64,000 nt of DNA from Ignavibacteria bacterium (GTDB lineage: Bacteria > Bacteroidota > Ignavibacteria > Kapaibacteriales > UBA4661): NCBI GenBank assembly GCA_013298775.1, contig JAAFIV010000014.1, positions 30,197 through 94,196 on the forward strand, read 5' to 3'. The notes beneath the pieces were generated by a model that was given only the letters and a program-made list of their open reading frames with translations, ran no database searches and was not told where the DNA came from. Numbering within the stretch: position 1 is the first letter of the stretch; each line of letters begins with the position of its first letter. The position numbers and the translations under genes are program-made. Below are positions 16,737 to 56,912 of this stretch, piece after piece.

Positions 16737-16793
16737 CGGCAGCAATACGGAATGGAAGTGTTTTCGAGAGACCCGCACAGAGCGCAGGGCTGT

Positions 16794-16949
16794 TAAGTTC
16801 TCGTGTTTGCCCTCATCCCAACCCTTCTCCCAGAAGGAGAAGGGCAAGACACAGAGCCGTTTCTGAAGCCCTCTCCTTCTGGGAGAGGGTTGGGTGAGGG
16901 CTTCACGGGAACAGAACTTAACAGCCCTGCGCACAAAGCGGGAGAGAGG
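16794..16949. mobile_element. Family A MITE-like palindromic element (about 156 nt) with 11-nt imperfect target-site duplication
   Basis: cagggctgttaagttct...agaacttaacagccctg; arms about 55 nt each around a central loop; flanks cgcacagagcg / cgcacaaagcg. Confidence 0.65.
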
Positions 16950-18970: not shown

Positions 18971-19252
18971 GGCAAATGCGGCAAGAAAAGTGAGGAAAGT
19001 AACGGAACGGCGTTTATGGTGCTTGCTGTTCGTCCATATCGCCGCTCATCCTGAACTGAAGCGGCATTGCACAATATGGAATAGATTTTGCATAGCACAG
19101 CCGCTTGGTGTGCAAAATGCAAAAAATCTTCGCCAAGCGCAAGGGAAAAGAAAGAGGGTAGTTTGATTACGCGCAGCGCAACTGTTGCGTTGTCTGCGAA
19201 GACAAGGCTTGCCTTAATGTCATCAGCGCAAGCCCTCACACCGCTCTGCGAG

Positions 19253-19575
19253 CGACCCTCTCGCAGAGGTAGAGGGTTGAGAACGGCTCTGTGTCTTGCC
19301 CTTCTCTCTCTGGAAGAAGGGTTGGGATGAGGAAAAAATTCTTACGTTGATGACATCAAGGCATACCTTTAATGGCATTAAGTTAAGCATAACTGTATGA
19401 TTTTGAACGCTTAATCATTCGCCCCCTTGATAAAGGGGGAACGGGGGATTTGAGGTTTGAAGCGTCTTTCGACAAATCCCCCACTCGCTACGCTCGTTGC
19501 CCCCTTTATCAAGGGGGCAAGATTCTATGCGGTTTGTAGTCTTAACTTAATGCCATCAAGGCATACCTTGTCTCT
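19253..19575. repeat. Composite repeat cluster upstream of rpoN: family A half-element, then an empty family C inverted-repeat pair nested in an outer IR
   Basis: 19253-19333 matches one arm plus loop of family A. 19416-19528 has cattcgcccccttgataaagggggaacgggggattt and its degenerate inverted copy. Outer IR catcaaggcatacc..atggcattaagttaag / cttaacttaatgccatcaaggcatacc. Confidence 0.6.
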
Positions 19576-21839: not shown

Positions 21840-22063
21840 AATGGAATGGTCATTGAGTATGTGATTCTAGCAATTACGCAGTGATACCGAACAATGCGAG
21901 TAAGGAAGGCGAATTTGAGGACTGTAAGGAATTCTAAAGATGGAAAAAGTCCTCAACATTCTGATAGTCTGGGCTTCATCGTATCTTGGTTTTCCGCGTT
22001 CCAATAATCGTTGTGTAATAAGTTGTGTAATAAGTTGTGTAATAAAACGTGTGAAACGTATAA

Positions 22064-26364: not shown

Positions 26365-26447
26365 AGGGTTTGTACGTGGTAAATCTGTATTCTGTTATTG
26401 TTCAATGTTTGTGGGATGCTTGGACGTGAACGATGTCGCATTCGCCC

Positions 26448-26934
26448 CCTTGATAAAGGGGGAACGGGGGATTTAACGCCTACAAGCCTCATCAATGCTT
26501 GTACAGATAGCTTCAAATCGCTCCAATACATCCAAATTAGTAAAGCGAATAACGCTTAGTCCATAACTACCGAGAAACGTTGTTCTTTTCGCATCATATT
26601 CTTGACCAGCATCAGTAAAATGCGGATCGCCATCAATTTCAATCACTATATTTTTTTCAGAGCAATAAAAATCAACAATATAGTTACCAAGCGGCTTCTG
26701 GCGTAGCCAGCGTACTGAGTGGGTTCGTAAAAACTCAAACCATAATTTTCGCTCGGCTAGTGTCATTGCTTGGCGCAATTCTCTTGCTCGGTCTTTCAAA
26801 GCAGGATTATACGGAATATATGGTGGTGAATTTTCCATATTTTTCACCTGAATATCCGAACTGTATTGAAGAGCAAAAAATGCACTTAGTGGTTAAATCC
26901 CCCGTTCCCCCTTTATCAAGGGGGCGAAGGAGTG
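26448..26934. mobile_element. Family C element: 37-nt terminal inverted repeats bounding a DUF559 endonuclease gene (candidate selfish REP13E12-like unit)
   Basis: Left cattcgcccccttgataaagggggaacgggggattta (26448-26486), right taaatcccccgttccccctttatcaagggggcgaaggagtg (26894-26934). Same IR pair without cargo at 19416-19528 and 45521-45797. Confidence 0.5.
26473..26847 (-). CDS. DUF559 endonuclease-domain protein (Vsr-like fold)
   Basis: LAERKLWFEFLRTH...WLRQKPLGNYIVDFYCSEKNIVIEIDGDPHF matches the DUF559 pattern (R..W..LR, xxDF, EIDG..H). Confidence 0.8.
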   Translation of the reverse strand: MKNMENSPPYIPYNPALKDRARELRQAMTLAERKLWFEFLRTHSVRWLRQKPLGNYIVDFYCSEKNIVIEIDGDPHFTDAGQEYDAKRTTFLGSYGLSVIRFTNLDVLERFEAICTSIDEACRR

Positions 26935-44678: not shown

Positions 44679-45467
44679 TCAAACATCGCTCCAAGTCTCA
44701 TCTTCAGAGCTTGCGATATTGTCAAGTTCGTTGTTTTCCAATTCTTTTAGCACCTGACGAATAATTTCCCACGTGAATCCCTGCCGTTGCAAGTAGCCAA
44801 GCAAGGACTGATGCCGCTTTTCGGGCGAATGTTTCTGTAAGGTGCGGAGTTTCTTGTGTGCGGCTTGTAAAGCACTCTCTAGCAAGGTATCATGCCGTGT
44901 TTCGGGTGGAAATTCCTCCAAAAGCGCATCTTCAATTTCAAACTTAGAAACGCCGCGCTTTGCGAGTTCTTGTCGAATGCGCTCCATGCCCGAGGGCTTG
45001 CGTTCATGTCGTTCTTTGATGAAAGCGCGAGCGTAAGCGGCATCGTTCACGTAGCCAAATTCTTCCAAAAATTGCACCGCATATTCCGCTTCTTCGGGCG
45101 AAAACTCTTTTTCTAGCATCTTGCGGCGTACTTCCTGCGCTGTGCGCGATTTGTACGTGGCATAGCGCAAAGCAATTTGCTTTAAGCGCATGACATCTTC
45201 CGACTCCATCATCCGCGCCAAATCTTGCGCCGTGAGCATTTTTCCCACACGCAATGCCGCTTGCACGACAATATCCATCGAGCAGCCAAAGGCAAATTCG
45301 CCATTCAAAAACACCGAACAGCGCGAGGGATTTTTCTTCTGCGCCTGAACGCTAGAAACCGTGTAGGGTGGCTGAATCTCGCGTAAATGCTTGGGAAGTG
45401 AACGCCTCAGCGAGGTGGCGGAATTCGTATGTGCTGATTCATTTGGTATTTCGTCGAGAAGCGGCAT
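44679..45467 (-). CDS. recX: RecA regulator RecX
   Basis: Three-helical-repeat RecX pattern (LRYATYKSRTAQEVRRKMLEKEFSPEEAEYAVQFLEEFGYVNDAAYARAFIK). Confidence 0.8.
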   Translation of the reverse strand: MPLLDEIPNESAHTNSATSLRRSLPKHLREIQPPYTVSSVQAQKKNPSRCSVFLNGEFAFGCSMDIVVQAALRVGKMLTAQDLARMMESEDVMRLKQIALRYATYKSRTAQEVRRKMLEKEFSPEEAEYAVQFLEEFGYVNDAAYARAFIKERHERKPSGMERIRQELAKRGVSKFEIEDALLEEFPPETRHDTLLESALQAAHKKLRTLQKHSPEKRHQSLLGYLQRQGFTWEIIRQVLKELENNELDNIASSEDETWSDV

Positions 45468-45520
45468 AAAGAATAGTTTTGTTGAGAAAATAACTATTGC
45501 AGAACGCTATCGAATTTGCC

Positions 45521-45797
45521 CCCTTGATAAAGGCAGGGCTGTTAAGTTCTCGTGTTTTCCCTCATCCCAACCCTTCTCCCAGAGGGAGAAGGGCAAGATA
45601 CAGAGCCACCTCTTCACCCTCGCCCCGCGTTTCGCGTGGGAGAGGGTCGCTCGCAGAGCGGGGTGAGGGCAGAACTTAACAGCCCTGCCCTTGATAAAGG
45701 GGGAACGGGGGATTTGTCCTGTGTGCGTGAGCAAGGGGTGCTGGAGACCGCACAGACCGTGAATCCCCCGTTCCCCCTTTATCAAGGGGGCGAATGA
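45521..45797. repeat. Family C inverted-repeat pair (empty) whose left arm is interrupted by a family A insertion
   Basis: gcccccttgataaagg | family A | cccttgataaagggggaacgggggattt ... aatcccccgttccccctttatcaagggggcgaatgagtg. Confidence 0.65.
45543..45687. mobile_element. Family A MITE-like element nested in family C, with 13-nt target-site duplication cccttgataaagg
   Basis: cagggctgttaagttctcg...cagaacttaacagccctg; duplicated flank at 45530-45542 and 45688-45700; removing element plus one duplicate restores an intact family C arm. Confidence 0.7.
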
Positions 45798-45949
45798 GTG
45801 AACTAATTGCTGTAGAACCTGAGTAGCTACGAAAAAGCAAGTATTGACGGGCTGCGGAAATGTTATTCGTGCAATGCAAGATACGGAGAAATGTTGTATT
45901 TTCGAGGTGCAATGGTGTACGACATTTTCAAATTTTTCCTTCATTCCGA

Positions 45950-47086
45950 ATGCGTTTTTTCTTCAATTTTACTCAACGCTCTCTTTTGCAGGCGTGTTCC
46001 CGTGCGGCTTTGGGGCTATTACTTTTATGGAATACAAGCATTGCTCAATATAGTTCTTTACAGCAAAATGCTACGCAGACCGCATCAGCACAAACCGTAT
46101 CAACACAAGGTTTGCGGATAAAAGCGGTGGGAGATGTGTTGCTAGGCTCGTACACGCCCGGTCGGTTTATTCCGCCAGATTCGGGAAATGTCTTCGTAAC
46201 AAGCATTGGTGCGCAGTTGAAGGGTGCCGATATTTGTTTTGGTAATTTTGAAGCTGCCTTCGCAATTGAAGGAAAAATGCGGGCGCAAAAATGCTCCGAA
46301 GCCTCGCGGCGCAAGGGAATGTGCTATGAATTCGGTACGCCGCCCTTTCTCGCGCCAAGCCTCAAGAAGCTAGGGTTTACCGTGATGAGTGTAGATAACA
46401 ACCACGCCGACGACTACGGCGCAGAAGCGGCGGAATTCACCAAACAAACCCTCCAGGAGCAAGGAATTGTGCCATCTCCGAAGCGCGGTCATGCAGAACT
46501 CGCGGTTCAGGGAAAGCGTGTGGCGATTGCCGCATTTGGATTCTCTGAAACATCGCATAAAATCTCGGATGTGGAGAATGCGGCTCAAGTGGTACGCGAC
46601 CTCAAACAACGCTACGAGCGAGTTCTCGTCTCCTTTCACGGCGGCGCAGAAGGCAAAACAGCGACGCACACCACCGATAAAACCGAGATATTTGCTGGAG
46701 AAAATCGCGGAAACGTTGTGAAATTTGCCCATGCTGTGATTGATGCTGGTGCGGATATGGTTATTGGGCATGGTCCGCACGTCCTTCGGGCGGTGGAATT
46801 GTACAAGAACCGCTTCATTGCCTATTCGCTAGGAAATTTTCTCACCTACGGCAATATCAACGTGAAAGGTATAAGCGGTGTAGCGTGCGTGCTGGAAGCA
46901 AGTATTGACAAGGCTTCTGGGGAATTTTTGGGCGGGCGCATTATTCCCGTCGTCCAGCGCGACCCAGGCATTCCAGAGCTAGACCCCGCGCAGCAAGCAA
47001 TTACGCTCATCCGCGACCTTACCACGAGCGATTTCCCCGCAACACCGCTTGTTATCGAGCCAGATGGCACGATTCGTAGAAAATAA
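45950..47086 (+). CDS. CapA-family (PGA_cap) metallophosphatase-like protein
   Basis: LRIKAVGDVLLG..., MSVDNNHADDYG, VSFHGGAEG, VIGHGPHVLRAVE are CapA/YwtB-type motifs; signal-peptide-like N-terminus; ATG at 45950. Confidence 0.75.
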   Translation: MRFFFNFTQRSLLQACSRAALGLLLLWNTSIAQYSSLQQNATQTASAQTVSTQGLRIKAVGDVLLGSYTPGRFIPPDSGNVFVTSIGAQLKGADICFGNFEAAFAIEGKMRAQKCSEASRRKGMCYEFGTPPFLAPSLKKLGFTVMSVDNNHADDYGAEAAEFTKQTLQEQGIVPSPKRGHAELAVQGKRVAIAAFGFSETSHKISDVENAAQVVRDLKQRYERVLVSFHGGAEGKTATHTTDKTEIFAGENRGNVVKFAHAVIDAGADMVIGHGPHVLRAVELYKNRFIAYSLGNFLTYGNINVKGISGVACVLEASIDKASGEFLGGRIIPVVQRDPGIPELDPAQQAITLIRDLTTSDFPATPLVIEPDGTIRRK

Positions 47087-49360: not shown

Positions 49361-49468
49361 GCCCTCACCCCTCGCTGCGCGAGACCCTCTCCCAGAGGGC
49401 GAGGGTTGGTGGAGACTAGCTCTGAAGCCCTCTCCCTCTGGGCGAGGGTTGGGTGAGGGTCTTTTGCG
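49361..49468. repeat. Family A-related palindromic element (subfamily lacking the cagggctgttaagttct termini)
   Basis: ccctcacccctcgc...ccctctcccagagggcgagggttgg...ctctgaagccctctccctctgggcgagggttgggtgagggtc. Confidence 0.6.
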
Positions 49469-49487: not shown

Positions 49488-51359
49488 TTATTCGCGGTCT
49501 TCATTTTGGCGTGGCGACCCAAAAATGCTTCCAAAGCGAGTAAAAAACGACGAGCGCGGCGGCTCCGATACTGATGTTTCAGCTTCAGATTTCGTCCGCT
49601 CGCTCGTGCTTTTTTCGTGTGCTGATGCGCTTTGTGAGGTAGGCTGCGACGCTGATGATTCCGTTGTTAATGATTCTGTCGTCAATGATTCCGTTGTTAA
49701 TGATTCTGTCGTTAATGATTCTGTTGTCAATGATTCCGTTGTGCGTGATTGTTGTGCGCCAGACGTGGCGGAATCTACGGCAAAATCGAAGCTCTTGAAC
49801 ATTTCTGCAAGGTCGGCGGCTTGCATAGCAAACGACGGATGGTCGAACTGCGCTTCCAATGGTATTCCTGATGCAGGTACTGATGACGCAAGCGGCTCGG
49901 TAATTTCAAACTCTGCATCAATCACGGAAGTTGTCGTGTTGGGTGCTTGATTGCTGGCTTGATTGCTGGCTTTGTGTGGAGTTTCAGGTGCTGTTGAAAT
50001 TGGTTGATGAAGCGAGTTCTCAGGTGATTTTTCAGGTAATTTTTCAGGTAATTCCTCATTGGTCAAGATTGTTGCAGGTGAGTTTTCATGCGCACTCTGG
50101 GCAATATCGCTTGTTTCGGTGTGGTCTTGTTCAATTGCTTTTTCTGTCACTTTGAATGAAGATTGTTCCGACGGTATTGTTGCTTGCTGCGTCGTTTCTG
50201 CTTGTGTTGATTCCGAAACAGGAGAAGGCGTACTCGCTAGATGTGCTTCCGCGCTTGCAACGGTGCGCTTTGTACGGATTGCTGTACCGATAGCCAGTTC
50301 GCCAATGGTATCGTCGGCTTTGAGTATCGGCTCTTCGTGCGCTGGAAATTGGGGTGCAAAATTGAGTGGAAGTGTTGTCGTGTCCTCTATTGGTGCGGGT
50401 TTGGGGAGTTCGTCGTTGGCAATGGCGAGTTCTAATTTCGCAACAATATCGTTCAGCACGTGGAGAAACTCGCGTTGCCCAACATAGCGCAGGGAACGAG
50501 TTTTCATCAGCTCTTCCAGCTCTTGTGCAATGCGGTAAATACCTTTGTCATCCAAGAAAATAATCAGCGCGGGTGTAGGAACTTTGCCGCGATATTGCTG
50601 TAATGCGCGGTCTCCAGCGTGAATTTCATCGAACATTTCAAACATTGGCGTAAGCAAATCCGTAAATTCTTCGGGCGAATACTCCAAAATCACGTCGTTA
50701 TCAACGGTTTGCAACACGCGGTCGAATTCCACCACCGACACTAAACTGGTATCAACCGTGAAAGGTCGCACAGAATCTGGCTTTGTGAGGTTGTCCTGCA
50801 AGCGAGTATCGGTGCGGTCTGTGGGGGATTGTGTGGCTGTACCTGTGAAAGCTCCATTGCCGCCATTTGCTTCCGCACCTGATTTTTCCTGCTGTTTCGT
50901 GCTAATCCAGTTCCGCACACCATCCAACATGTAATCGTATTCCAAAAAATAATCCATGCGAAGCATTACTTCGCGCAAGGTTTTCGTGGGTTCGCCGCGA
51001 TAGACAAACCATTTCAGCGTTGTGCGCGGACGCAAGATGTAGTTGAAGCGAGTTTTTACGGCAAGGTCAATAGCAGCGTTCAGGTCTTGGTGGTCGTAGC
51101 GGGCGGATTCCATCAGCACGTGGTCAAGTTCGCTGAAAAGCCCTGAGAGTGCGGGGTTGGTGGTGTCGAAGCGAGGATTAGCGGCGCGTTGCATTTGTTG
51201 GTCAAAAATCCACCATTGCGATTCCGCACCAAAGAAATTTCGGTAAAAGACGGCAATATCCGCCCTGCGACGAATGTCGTCCCAATAGACGTACTGCGAA
51301 GCACCAGCCATGCGCTGTGTGAGCAATTCTTTTGCGCGTTGTATTTCTCGTTCAAACAT
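49488..51359 (-). CDS. Hypothetical protein (623 aa) with conserved-looking N-terminal about 330 aa and acidic low-complexity C-region including (TESLT)x5
   Basis: 15-nt tandem repeats at about 49640-49740 encode TESLTTESLTTESLTTESLTTESLT; no domain recognised by eye. Confidence 0.5.
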   Translation of the reverse strand: MFEREIQRAKELLTQRMAGASQYVYWDDIRRRADIAVFYRNFFGAESQWWIFDQQMQRAANPRFDTTNPALSGLFSELDHVLMESARYDHQDLNAAIDLAVKTRFNYILRPRTTLKWFVYRGEPTKTLREVMLRMDYFLEYDYMLDGVRNWISTKQQEKSGAEANGGNGAFTGTATQSPTDRTDTRLQDNLTKPDSVRPFTVDTSLVSVVEFDRVLQTVDNDVILEYSPEEFTDLLTPMFEMFDEIHAGDRALQQYRGKVPTPALIIFLDDKGIYRIAQELEELMKTRSLRYVGQREFLHVLNDIVAKLELAIANDELPKPAPIEDTTTLPLNFAPQFPAHEEPILKADDTIGELAIGTAIRTKRTVASAEAHLASTPSPVSESTQAETTQQATIPSEQSSFKVTEKAIEQDHTETSDIAQSAHENSPATILTNEELPEKLPEKSPENSLHQPISTAPETPHKASNQASNQAPNTTTSVIDAEFEITEPLASSVPASGIPLEAQFDHPSFAMQAADLAEMFKSFDFAVDSATSGAQQSRTTESLTTESLTTESLTTESLTTESLTTESSASQPTSQSASAHEKSTSERTKSEAETSVSEPPRSSFFTRFGSIFGSPRQNEDRE

Positions 51360-54300: not shown

Positions 54301-55265
54301 ACATTGCCCGTGCTGTCTTTTTCCAGCATAATAATTCCACTCTCCCGCAACAGCGTCGTGCTGTTCGCGCCCGTAAATGGCTGAATCGCAAGATTTCCTG
54401 CGGCTTGTGGCTGTGCGCAGTGAAATAATCCTTTGCCCGTCCCGATAAGGAGTTCGCCATTACTCATTTCTTGAAGCGAGTGAATATGCGCTGTTGGGGT
54501 GTTTGCAATGGAAGCGTTTGCGGTGGAAGCATTTGCTGTGGAAGCATTTGCGGTGGAAGCGTTTGCTGCGGGAGTGTTGCTCGTGGCATCGCTCAGGAAT
54601 GGCGTACAGACACCTGTTTCAGGCGAATAACGATGCAGACCATTTGCAGTGCCAAGCCAAAGCGTGCCGTGCGAATCGTGCAGGAATGCGTACAAATATG
54701 CCGAGCGCAAGCCCTTTTCACCTGCTTTGAGAATGATTTCTTTCCTCACTTCTTTGCTTGCTGTTATCCTTATCTCTTGGTTTGATTCTTCAAGGATGCC
54801 GATTTCATCTGTGCGCATAGCTGCCGTGTGAATCCAGCACCAGAGCTTGCCGGAACGGTCTTCGTGTATATCGGCGATGGGCTTATTGGCAAAAAAGCGT
54901 TGGAAGGTGTTCGTGTTGCGATTGAGGCGTGCAAGTCCTGAAGCCGTTCCCAGCCATAATCTTCCTTGCTTGTCCTCGTGCAGATGCAGAACGTTGCTGC
55001 TTGGCAAGGATCGCACATTACCGCTTTCATGTAGAAACTGGGTCATGGAAACGCCATCCCAACGAAATGCACCTTGCTCGGTTGCAAACCACAGAAAGCC
55101 ATATTTGTCTTGCAAAACCGCCTGAACATGGCGTGAATGCAAGCCTTGCTGGGTAGTGAGTGCCTCAATTTGGAGGGTTTGCTGTGCAAAACTCGGCGCA
55201 CAACAGATAAACAGATTGCACAGGCAAAAAAAACAGCCAAAAAAATATTGTAGCGAATGTTTCAT
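51390..55265 (-). CDS. Two-component-regulator propeller (Reg_prop/Y_Y_Y) sensor histidine kinase without receiver domain
   Basis: Signal peptide; repeated propeller motifs (GTLWLGTANGL; LWIGHEGGV; GRVWIGSEGGV; GNIWVSTRRGV); TM WWRAWWFLAGSSILTLLAAFLLY; H-box VMHEINNP; N LVNAAQAG, G1 VHDNGKGM, G2 GNSGLGL. Internal 15-nt tandem repeats (ANAST)x4. ATG at 55265. Confidence 0.85.
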   Translation of the reverse strand: MKHSLQYFFGCFFCLCNLFICCAPSFAQQTLQIEALTTQQGLHSRHVQAVLQDKYGFLWFATEQGAFRWDGVSMTQFLHESGNVRSLPSSNVLHLHEDKQGRLWLGTASGLARLNRNTNTFQRFFANKPIADIHEDRSGKLWCWIHTAAMRTDEIGILEESNQEIRITASKEVRKEIILKAGEKGLRSAYLYAFLHDSHGTLWLGTANGLHRYSPETGVCTPFLSDATSNTPAANASTANASTANASTANASIANTPTAHIHSLQEMSNGELLIGTGKGLFHCAQPQAAGNLAIQPFTGANSTTLLRESGIIMLEKDSTGNVFAGAMRREGTVNTIVWVDVQRGTMSEPLPVLPLEGKAQSHRTALDANNGHIYWGVGNGAIRLNTAQMHSELLLADAAAPTRLHAGVAGACVSKAGKIWFARTSSGVSALLPPPPPFAALTKPLLLAHSVSAIAEAPDGAMWIGYMNGTGVSLFNPRTQAISHLRTDARNPSSLLGFDGETNIYAFCSTNVGTRRGAWWVGGFALERRISDESGANTRFEHTLLFNNQALPVSAMLEDADGNFWIGTHSVGLFLLDAAGNVVKQFTNKPSNTESLGNNTIHTIIQDRAKMLWIGHEGGVDTFDPKRKMFRHFRAYAFPTNNHEEETEEQENLSNTAASGIVGAVHALLCDSKGRVWIGSEGGVSCFDPATQALVRHFSTRTGLPNNAIAGIVEDGSGNIWVSTRRGVCRISEENMKGVEGSSILTFTRASGLADDEFSNGAATRSRDGKLWFGGRSAIVYFHPDSIIRGAVNSIRSDVGANVGTDIGKENTSNKAVMTYVKKFGEITPLEEYIADAERIELGYADKIIAFGYAAPSMLYPEHAQFAYKLEGLDTAYILAGTEREAKYTSLPDGEYTFFVKAADHNGVWQNRATALRVIVRPPWWRAWWFLAGSSILTLLAAFLLYKRRIRTIELRNQELTRLVDERTHQLKEANIEVHRQLEILDEQAQEIEISNTRLQETNLQLDSTLNELKDTQTQLVQSERINAAGMLTAGVMHEINNPNASIHSAVELGQQQLRSLEQYFFSLLDAEGRASKEAAGFTERAQKLADILHIALTGSERIGNIVTSLQGFTKHQHVGKTRNDVAAEVRSTATMFRYQFKDIVVEEQLPSHIHVKAQWDEINQAMLNLLVNAAQAGATRIRIAAELSDGSEGAPKLIFSVHDNGKGMDAETQKHIFEPFFTTKSVGNSGLGLSITRQIIERHHGEITVESTPGQGTTFTITLPQKNGSADATAETQTETQAETQAGAAH

Positions 55266-56812: not shown

Positions 56813-56912
56813 CGCCGCCCTCACCCCTCGCTGCTCTCCCAGAGGGAGAGGGTTGGTGGAGACTAGCTCTGAAGCCCTCTCCCTCTGGGAGAGGGTTGGG
56901 TGAGGGTCTTTT
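56813..56912. repeat. Family A-related palindromic element between susC and susD
   Basis: Near-identical to the 49361-49468 copy (ccctcacccctcgctgctctcccagagggagagggttggtggagactagctctgaagccctctccctctgggagagggttgggtgagggtc). Confidence 0.6.

Follow-up and report, generated by a model that had tools for sequence, protein, structure and literature searches.

The window, by which is meant the whole 64-kb stretch of DNA that was analysed, contains a 482-bp spacer between the divergent genes recX (minus strand, start 45467) and capA (PGA_cap, plus strand). This spacer houses a nested composite of two repeats: an outer family C element and an inner family A element, which interrupts the left family C arm. 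The features of the composite, and of the copies elsewhere in the window with which it is compared, are as follows.

45516–45533, plus strand: left family C arm, outer part as far as the point of insertion; alignable with the uninterrupted arms at 19418 and 26441
45521–45533, no strand: target-site duplication, copy 1 (cccttgataaagg, 13 bp); exact direct repeat of 45688–45700
45534–45687, no strand: family A element, 154 bp, an ISAs1-family MITE with no coding capacity; ends identical to those of ISAs1 insertion sequences
45534–45550, plus strand: left terminal inverted repeat CAGGGCTGTTAAGTTCT; its first bases, CAGGG, are those reported for ISAs1 ends (PMC11946415)
45559–45669, no strand: interior palindromic unit ccctcatccc...ggggtgaggg; also present without family A ends at 19232–19337, 49362–49459, and 56818–56906
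45671–45687, minus strand: right terminal inverted repeat; complementary to the left repeat at every position
45688–45700, no strand: target-site duplication, copy 2 (cccttgataaagg); exact direct repeat
45701–45797, plus strand: rest of the family C element, made up of the inner left arm, 47 nt of central sequence, and an undisrupted right arm (45762–45796)
16774–16940, no strand: second family A MITE (16785–16929, 145 bp) with its duplication (16774–16784/16930–16940)
19418–19520, no strand: family C copy without a gene and with an uninterrupted left arm; paralogous empty site
26441–26928, no strand: full family C cassette, with 35–42-nt inverted arms around a DUF559 gene and both arm hairpins uninterrupted

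The inserted family A element measures 154 nt rather than the 145 nt given in the initial annotation, a length that belongs to the other copy. It starts with cagggctgttaagttct, ends with agaacttaacagccctg, and is bounded by perfect 17-bp terminal inverted repeats. The 13-bp sequence cccttgataaagg is found on both sides of the element as an exact direct repeat, and the bases that flank its two copies are unequal, which makes the length of 13 bp unambiguous. Upstream of the insertion point, the left family C arm reads ttgcccccttgataaagg; 3′ of the element, the arm resumes with cccttgataaagg followed by gggaacgggggattt (45688 onward). Deletion of 45534–45700 yields gcccccttgataaagggggaacgggggattt, a sequence identical to the intact family C arms at 19420 and 26444, and the junction expected in the recX–capA spacer without the 167-bp insert is ...atcgaatttgcccccttgataaagggggaacggggg.... 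Thus, both the nested insertion with its 13-bp duplication and the recovery of an intact arm on removal of the insert and one repeat copy, as proposed in the initial annotation, are borne out, with boundaries that leave no ambiguity. The counter-explanation raised there, that other copies lack duplications and that palindromy of the family C arm alone produces the repeat, fails on both points. Duplications are found at other copies, and the loop of the arm, gata, is duplicated in direct orientation, whereas arm palindromy would give tatc. Because the loop is repeated directly and not inverted, the 13-bp repeat cannot be a product of the palindrome.

Four occurrences of the 17-mer end, which form two inverted pairs, were counted in the window, compared with 0.09 expected from shuffles, and the window holds two family A copies. 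The second copy was initially placed at 16794–16949 and actually spans 16785–16929; the imperfect 11-nt duplication described for it is present, with one mismatch between cgcacaGagcg and cgcacaAagcg. The only ORFs that cross the inserted element are long spurious ones that run through the repeats. MITEs are short (under about 600 bp) and non-coding, and they have terminal inverted repeats and a target-site duplication. In these respects the two copies qualify: they are 154 and 145 bp long, their terminal repeats are perfect, and their duplications measure 13 and 11 bp, respectively. Their interiors (45559–45669 and 16810–16900) are a separate palindromic unit, ccctcaYcc...gggtgaggg, with a central hairpin, ccctctcc-loop-ggagaggg. 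At 19232–19337, this unit is enclosed by a different inverted-repeat pair (gccttRatgtcatca). The interiors of these MITEs seem to be assembled from other resident repeats.

A nested arrangement could also be simulated by an assembly artefact, that is, by a chimeric join of repeats in a metagenome-assembled genome. Such repeats often break or confuse assemblies, and many of the end-sequence matches and DUF559 contigs stop at contig ends. A misjoin, however, would not yield an exact 13-bp direct repeat around perfect terminal repeats. The element (154 bp + 13) is shorter than the span of a typical read pair, and unique sequence continues on either side of the composite into intact recX and capA. 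An artefact is therefore very improbable at this locus.

Terminal repeats and transposases of the ISAs1 family

The ends of family A point to the ISAs1 family of insertion sequences. ISAs1 ends are described as 14–22 bp in length with a CAGGG start, accompanied by a 10-bp direct repeat (PMC11946415), and ISArsp11 has the left inverted repeat CAGGGCTGATGC..., the start CAGGGCTG, and also a 10-bp direct repeat (PMC6305408). The perfect 17-bp repeat of family A has both the length and the start that characterize this family. The 13- and 11-bp duplications in the window agree in size class with those of ISAs1 elements and exceed the quoted range of about 8–10 bp (10 bp in PMC11946415).

A scan of one genome per species (596 Gb) for the exact 17-mer returned at least 118 stretches. 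Approximately 70 matches are expected by chance in a search of this size, so that single unpaired matches prove nothing alone. Among the matches listed, many are inverted pairs separated by 110–210 bp, as in MITEs, and several are pairs 1.15–1.3 kb apart. Autonomous elements with these ends (L071 339–1494 and L087 2315–3605) contain ORFs that carry DDE_Tnp_1_assoc and DDE_Tnp_1. When their frames are joined, the transposases of L038 and L087 match the NCBIfam entry NF033564, “ISAs1 family transposase,” with scores of 258 and 246 bits (cut-off 70), covering positions 2–313 of 314. The same ends are found on ISAs1-transposase-encoding elements at L071, L087, L038, L036, and L025, and the tblastn matches on plasmids are all annotated as ISAs1 transposases. 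The ISAs1 copy on a finished Nostoc plasmid has the ends CAGGGCTGTTTCATTCC and an 11-bp duplication.

One of these elements, L025, is an autonomous ISAs1 insertion sequence in Candidatus Kapaibacterium STL-BAC57, and its end abuts ctttatcaagggg. The CapA protein of the window is 83% identical to a protein of Ca. Kapaibacterium, the closest relative with a name, with the next matches in Kapabacteria and Ignavibacteria MAGs; the DNA thus probably comes from an uncultured bacterium of the Kapaibacteria type. The cognate insertion sequence in Ca. Kapaibacterium STL-BAC57 and the relationship of the CapA proteins together indicate that a suitable transposase exists in the same lineage. Within the 64-kb window, tblastn with two ISAs1 transposases returned nothing below E = 0.03; with respect to ISAs1, the earlier statement that the window has no candidate transposase is correct.

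ISAs1 transposase genes with CAGGGCTGTT... ends all occupy two frames, which divide directly after the sequence LDALH(T/C)QKK (L071 900–990, L087 about 2950–2990, L038 2800–2890, L036 2960–3050, L025 60–150, and L125 1090–1130). The split falls at a run of adenines, either A8, which needs a −1 shift, or A7, which needs a +1 or −2 shift. These two-frame genes include the finished Nostoc plasmid copy, which is annotated as two CDS, and the joined frames give one continuous full-length match to NF033564. On sequence grounds, this arrangement looks like programmed frameshifting or transcriptional slippage at the A7/A8 run.

The MITE and the insertion sequences share the 17 bp and nothing more. MITEs with the same ends are found in Bacteroidales, Cytophagales, Saprospiraceae, Rhodothermales, Moduliflexota, Desulfobacterales, and Ignavibacteria, and they have only the 17 bp in common with family A, their interiors being made of local palindromic repeats. 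There are hints that MITEs with ISAs1 ends arise repeatedly around local palindromes, by a foldback route to MITE birth. In Dysgonomonas and Butyricimonas (Bacteroidales; L002, L110, L117, and L079), the 17-bp ends surround interiors that consist of another, widespread palindromic repeat, of the type gtcatcctgag...gaaggatctc.

This distribution also bears on the possibility that the main role of family A is that of a structured functional element (for example, a terminator, a regulatory RNA, or a palindrome bound by a protein) and that it was spread by recombination or selection rather than by transposition. The single-strand fold of the composite is highly stable (−99.8 kcal/mol, z = −13.8), and its location in the divergent recX–capA intergenic region would suit a regulatory role. 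A stable fold, however, is the trivial outcome of nested inverted repeats. Nowhere in the 64-kb window is there an Rfam match, and no promoter-like or terminator-like site was found in 45350–45950. In addition, what is conserved in the same-end MITEs of other phyla is confined to the ends to which a transposase would bind, with unrelated interiors between them. A primarily structural or regulatory identity for family A is thus very unlikely.

Searches beyond these genomes were unproductive. Four single unpaired 17-mer matches in viral contigs, about the number expected by chance and none with the target motif, were discarded. Metagenome scans for the 21-mer MITE end of the subfamily, and for the unique flank together with the C arm (C-arm junction), gave no match. 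No orthologous empty site was found in a related strain, and the locus of the 83%-identical Kapaibacterium CapA is not syntenic; the empty sites available for comparison are the paralogous ones provided by intact C arms. Judged by its sequence, family A is a non-autonomous element of the ISAs1 type (MITE). As the initial annotation held, a small non-autonomous inverted-repeat element has transposed here, a conclusion that draws on the paralogous empty sites, the ISAs1 insertion sequences that share the ends, and the 26 further duplications described below. Family A is, or was, mobile.

Target-site duplications and target preference

Pairing of 17-mer ends at up to three mismatches gave 57 candidate elements. 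A clean duplication, for which direct repeats of 9 bp or more with no more than one mismatch were required at the flanks, is present at 28 of them; the 29 pairs without one are a mixture of mispaired ends, duplications that have decayed, and matches that the relaxed pattern admits by chance. The 28 duplications are 9 bp (two elements), 10 bp (seven), 11 bp (nine), 12 bp (nine), and 13 bp (one) in length. The initial annotation had called for such a catalogue, which shows that the length is not fixed at 13 bp but ranges from 9 to 13 bp, with 11 and 12 bp the commonest. The 13-bp duplication of the window is the single longest of the 28 and lies above the usual figure for ISAs1, about 10 bp, whereas the 11 bp of the second window copy is a typical length. 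The 28 include autonomous copies, with duplications of 10 bp (L087) and 12 bp (L038).

Outside the window, duplications of 9–13 bp are found at 26 further same-end elements in other genomes from many phyla. The occurrence of duplications of one size class in unrelated contexts argues against an origin of the 13-bp repeat by local duplication or by recombination between C copies, with family A merely lying between the repeats. Such an origin is not without attractions: the window has several family C arms, slippage and recombination are favoured by the many palindromes of the region, and a similar composite at L070 contains a 77-bp tandem duplication. Nevertheless, the repeat exactly abuts the first and last base of the perfect terminal repeats, and the duplicated part of the arm is 13 bp only, not an arm-sized segment. 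We give this explanation very little credence.

Many of the small, non-coding palindromic repeats of bacteria derive from IS630 or are of the REP/RAYT type, and on these general grounds family A might have been a MITE of another superfamily (IS630/Tc1-mariner, IS5, IS1595, or IS200/IS605 with a RAYT-type enzyme), an assignment that is scarcely credible given ends identical at 17 of 17 positions to those of elements encoding NF033564 ISAs1 transposases. For the same reason, the transposases that had first been put forward, IS630/Tc1, IS200/IS605, and IS1595, were the wrong candidates. The 9–13-bp duplications, C/G-rich at their edges, are not the TA of IS630/Tc1-mariner-derived MITEs, and the 8-bp duplication of IS1595 is seen at none of the 28 elements. 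IS200/IS605 elements and REPINs, which make no duplication and have no such terminal inverted repeats, are ruled out by the perfect terminal repeats and clear duplications of family A.

At 20 of the 28 reconstructed target sites, the midpoint of the duplication lies no more than 2 nt from the centre of a perfect stem of 5 bp or longer, compared with 3.9% of random positions at the same loci. Stems of at least 6 bp are present at 57% of the sites versus 16% of generic CCC-N2–8-GGG sites, and the longest target stems reach 9 bp. Among 169 unique end flanks, C rises to as much as 67% between positions −14 and −8, a stretch rich in A/T follows from −7 to −4, and G accounts for 86% at position −1. 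The motif C3+ N2–8 G2+ adjoins 45% of ends versus 0.5% of random positions (p about 1e-129). Both copies in the window fit this pattern, the first at ccccctt-gata-aaggggg and the second at its host hairpin, cccgc-acaga-gcggg. The ISAs1 lineage with CAGGGCTGTTAAGTTCT ends, insertion sequences and MITEs alike, shows a strong preference for C-run/loop/G-run hairpins. Because duplications are centred on palindromes at this frequency and random positions are not, the nesting of family A in family C reflects target preference rather than chance.

The family C arm hairpin was struck independently in two other genomes (L070 and L025). In L070, an Ignavibacteria MAG, an A-like MITE lies within the same C-arm hairpin and is flanked by a 12-bp duplication. 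The A-like MITE of this composite (L070 4783–5145) bears a family C arm fragment inside, and the 77-bp tandem duplication, which comprises the A left end and C arm, is either a real recombination or an assembly effect.

Cuts fall 0–6 bp inside the stem and are symmetric within about 1–2 bp at the 28 sites. Across the same sites, no rule was seen that links duplication length to the size of the stem or loop. This lack of a relation favours a loosely fixed stagger over cleavage at the hairpin base.

Taken with the shared ends, these observations make it very probable that family A is an ISAs1-family MITE that was moved in trans and inserted preferentially at the palindrome of the family C arm. 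The element keeps just the 17-bp ends that an ISAs1 DDE transposase would bind. Because only these ends are kept and family A has no transposase of its own, we infer that it must be mobilised in trans by a transposase encoded elsewhere. In the proposed mechanism, an ISAs1 DDE transposase made elsewhere would bind both 17-bp ends and capture a C-run/loop/G-run palindrome, supplied here by the family C arm. The ends would then be joined to the two target strands about one helical turn apart (13 bp), symmetrically about the ccccctt-gata-aaggggg centre, and gap repair would produce the 13-bp duplication, or one of 9–13 bp more generally. The palindrome could be read either as sequence, in the form of two symmetric half-sites, or as an extruded hairpin.

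The strong symmetric preference for C5-N4-G5-type palindromes, together with a variable duplication of 9–13 bp, provides a concrete, testable handle on target capture by an ISAs1 transposase. It also accounts for the accumulation of small palindromic repeats within one another in these genomes, with the result that metagenome assemblies break there.

Family C and the DUF559 cassette

The gene enclosed by the arms of the full family C cassette (26473–26847, minus strand) encodes a DUF559 protein (PF04480, E = 2e-28). The family C copies at 19418–19520 and 45516–45797 lack this gene; in this gene-less form, family C derives from a DUF559 cassette that has hairpin arms. The DUF559 homologues examined are 80%, 72%, 69%, 58%, 57%, and 52% identical (one from a Burkholderiales MAG) and 50% identical (from a Desulfamplus MAG). 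All are flanked by a CCCCC-loop-GGGGG hairpin and then GGGGG(A)TTT, with arm sequences that are lineage-specific. The loci compared are the window cassette and L126, L128, L131, L133, L134, L135, and L039, and the flanking repeats are usually inverted.

The arms around the 80%-identical homologue are identical to those of family C and lie in a different gene neighbourhood, which suggests that the cassette moves. The DUF559 unit may, from this comparison, be an undescribed mobile cassette. Target-site duplications were looked for at the ends of family C, including the cassette of the 80% homologue, and none was seen. A search of the literature, mostly open-access and hence a weak negative, returned nothing relevant on DUF559 with inverted repeats. 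A survey of PD-(D/E)XK proteins groups DUF559 with Vsr and a group I intron homing endonuclease (PMC3424549). The presence of DUF559 between hairpin arms of conserved architecture in distant lineages offers a clue to what the proteins of this large, uncharacterized family do.

A broader reading, which we put forward only tentatively, combines these elements into an undescribed three-level parasitic hierarchy. It would comprise DUF559 cassettes that are possibly mobile through a Vsr-like PD-(D/E)XK nuclease, the gene-less family C elements, and a distinct ISAs1 lineage that, together with its MITEs, shares the 17-bp ends across at least five phyla. This lineage would specifically recognize the C-run/loop/G-run hairpins of these repeats (perhaps when extruded) and would express its transposase by programmed frameshifting or transcriptional slippage.

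Other repeats are also present in the window. The gene-less family C copy at 19418–19520 is bracketed by the inverted pair ggcatacctttaatggcattaagttaag/cttaacttaatgccatcaaggcatacc (19360–19570), a further layer of nesting. A third repeat family, with the palindrome CACAGACA-NNNN-TGTCTGTG and a length of about 25 nt, has at least 12 copies in the 64 kb (17047, 25245, 25293, 30501, 32445, 32491, 34262, 40232, 41798, 41846, 44502, and 63437), often as inverted pairs about 48 nt apart. Short tandem repeats at 49640–49759, 54490–54574, and 22010–22057 have periods of 15, 15, and 12 nt, respectively, and the first two may be coding repeats.

Comparison with known systems

A nested insertion is in itself routine, and MITEs that lie within other repeats and are flanked by a target-site duplication are already known; the member described here derives from ISAs1. 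The features that go beyond the routine are how strong and symmetric the target preference is, the identity of the ends across phyla, and the two-frame transposase gene, in a family that has been very little studied mechanistically; none of the three was found reported in the limited literature available. In the searchable literature, which was mostly open-access and without ISfinder and TnPedia, so that the negative is a weak one, there was no description of an ISAs1-derived MITE and no report of a preference of ISAs1 elements for palindrome or stem-loop targets or of the CAGGGCTGTTAAGTTCT-type end itself.

Similar to ISAs1, IS1358, the E. coli H-repeat (ISEc1), and ISArsp11, family A has a CAGGG(CTG) start, ends whose 17 bp lie within the 14–22 bp of the family, and direct repeats at its flanks that span roughly one turn of the helix. 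The main differences are that family A has no transposase, is only 145–154 bp long, and has duplications of up to 13 bp (9–13 bp). The ISAs1 family is usually described with a single ORF, whereas the autonomous relatives with the same ends carry the transposase in two frames joined at the A7/A8 run.

Family A resembles other bacterial MITEs in its size, terminal repeats, duplication, lack of coding sequence, presence in more than one copy (two in 64 kb), intergenic location, and foldback interior. Most of the bacterial MITEs that have been described derive from IS630, IS5, IS1, IS4, IS256, or Tn3, and the interiors of the same-end MITEs are built from other resident palindromic repeats, wholly different between phyla. 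The Tn3-derived members are termed TIMEs (PMC4133298). REPINs, which are dispersed in many copies, are similar to family A in being short palindromic intergenic repeats, but unlike family A they have no target-site duplication and no CAGGG ends and are moved by a Y1 (IS200-like) transposase, the RAYT.

In its targets, the lineage is reminiscent of IS231A and the IS4 family, in which a transposase of the DDE_Tnp_1 type leaves duplications of variable length, close to one helical turn, at a symmetric target with G/C runs. The target consensus of IS231A, from the 1994 work of Hallet et al., is reportedly GGG(N)5CCC, with 10–12-bp repeats. The polarity of that target is opposite to that of the family A targets, in which a C run precedes the loop and a G run follows it, and two triplets in IS231A compare with extended perfect palindromes, with stems of up to 9 bp, here. 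Variable direct repeats of about one turn are documented for IS4 (PMC2266710).

The composite is also reminiscent of the repeat-in-repeat nests made by elements that insert into REP/BIME sequences, although the chemistry of these elements, which belong to the IS3 and IS110 families, is different and leaves short duplications or none. IS1397, ISKpn1, and IS110/IS621-type elements insert specifically into short repeated palindromes of this kind. In the nests described here, by comparison, a DDE_Tnp_1/ISAs1 enzyme would leave duplications of 9–13 bp that span the loop of the palindrome.
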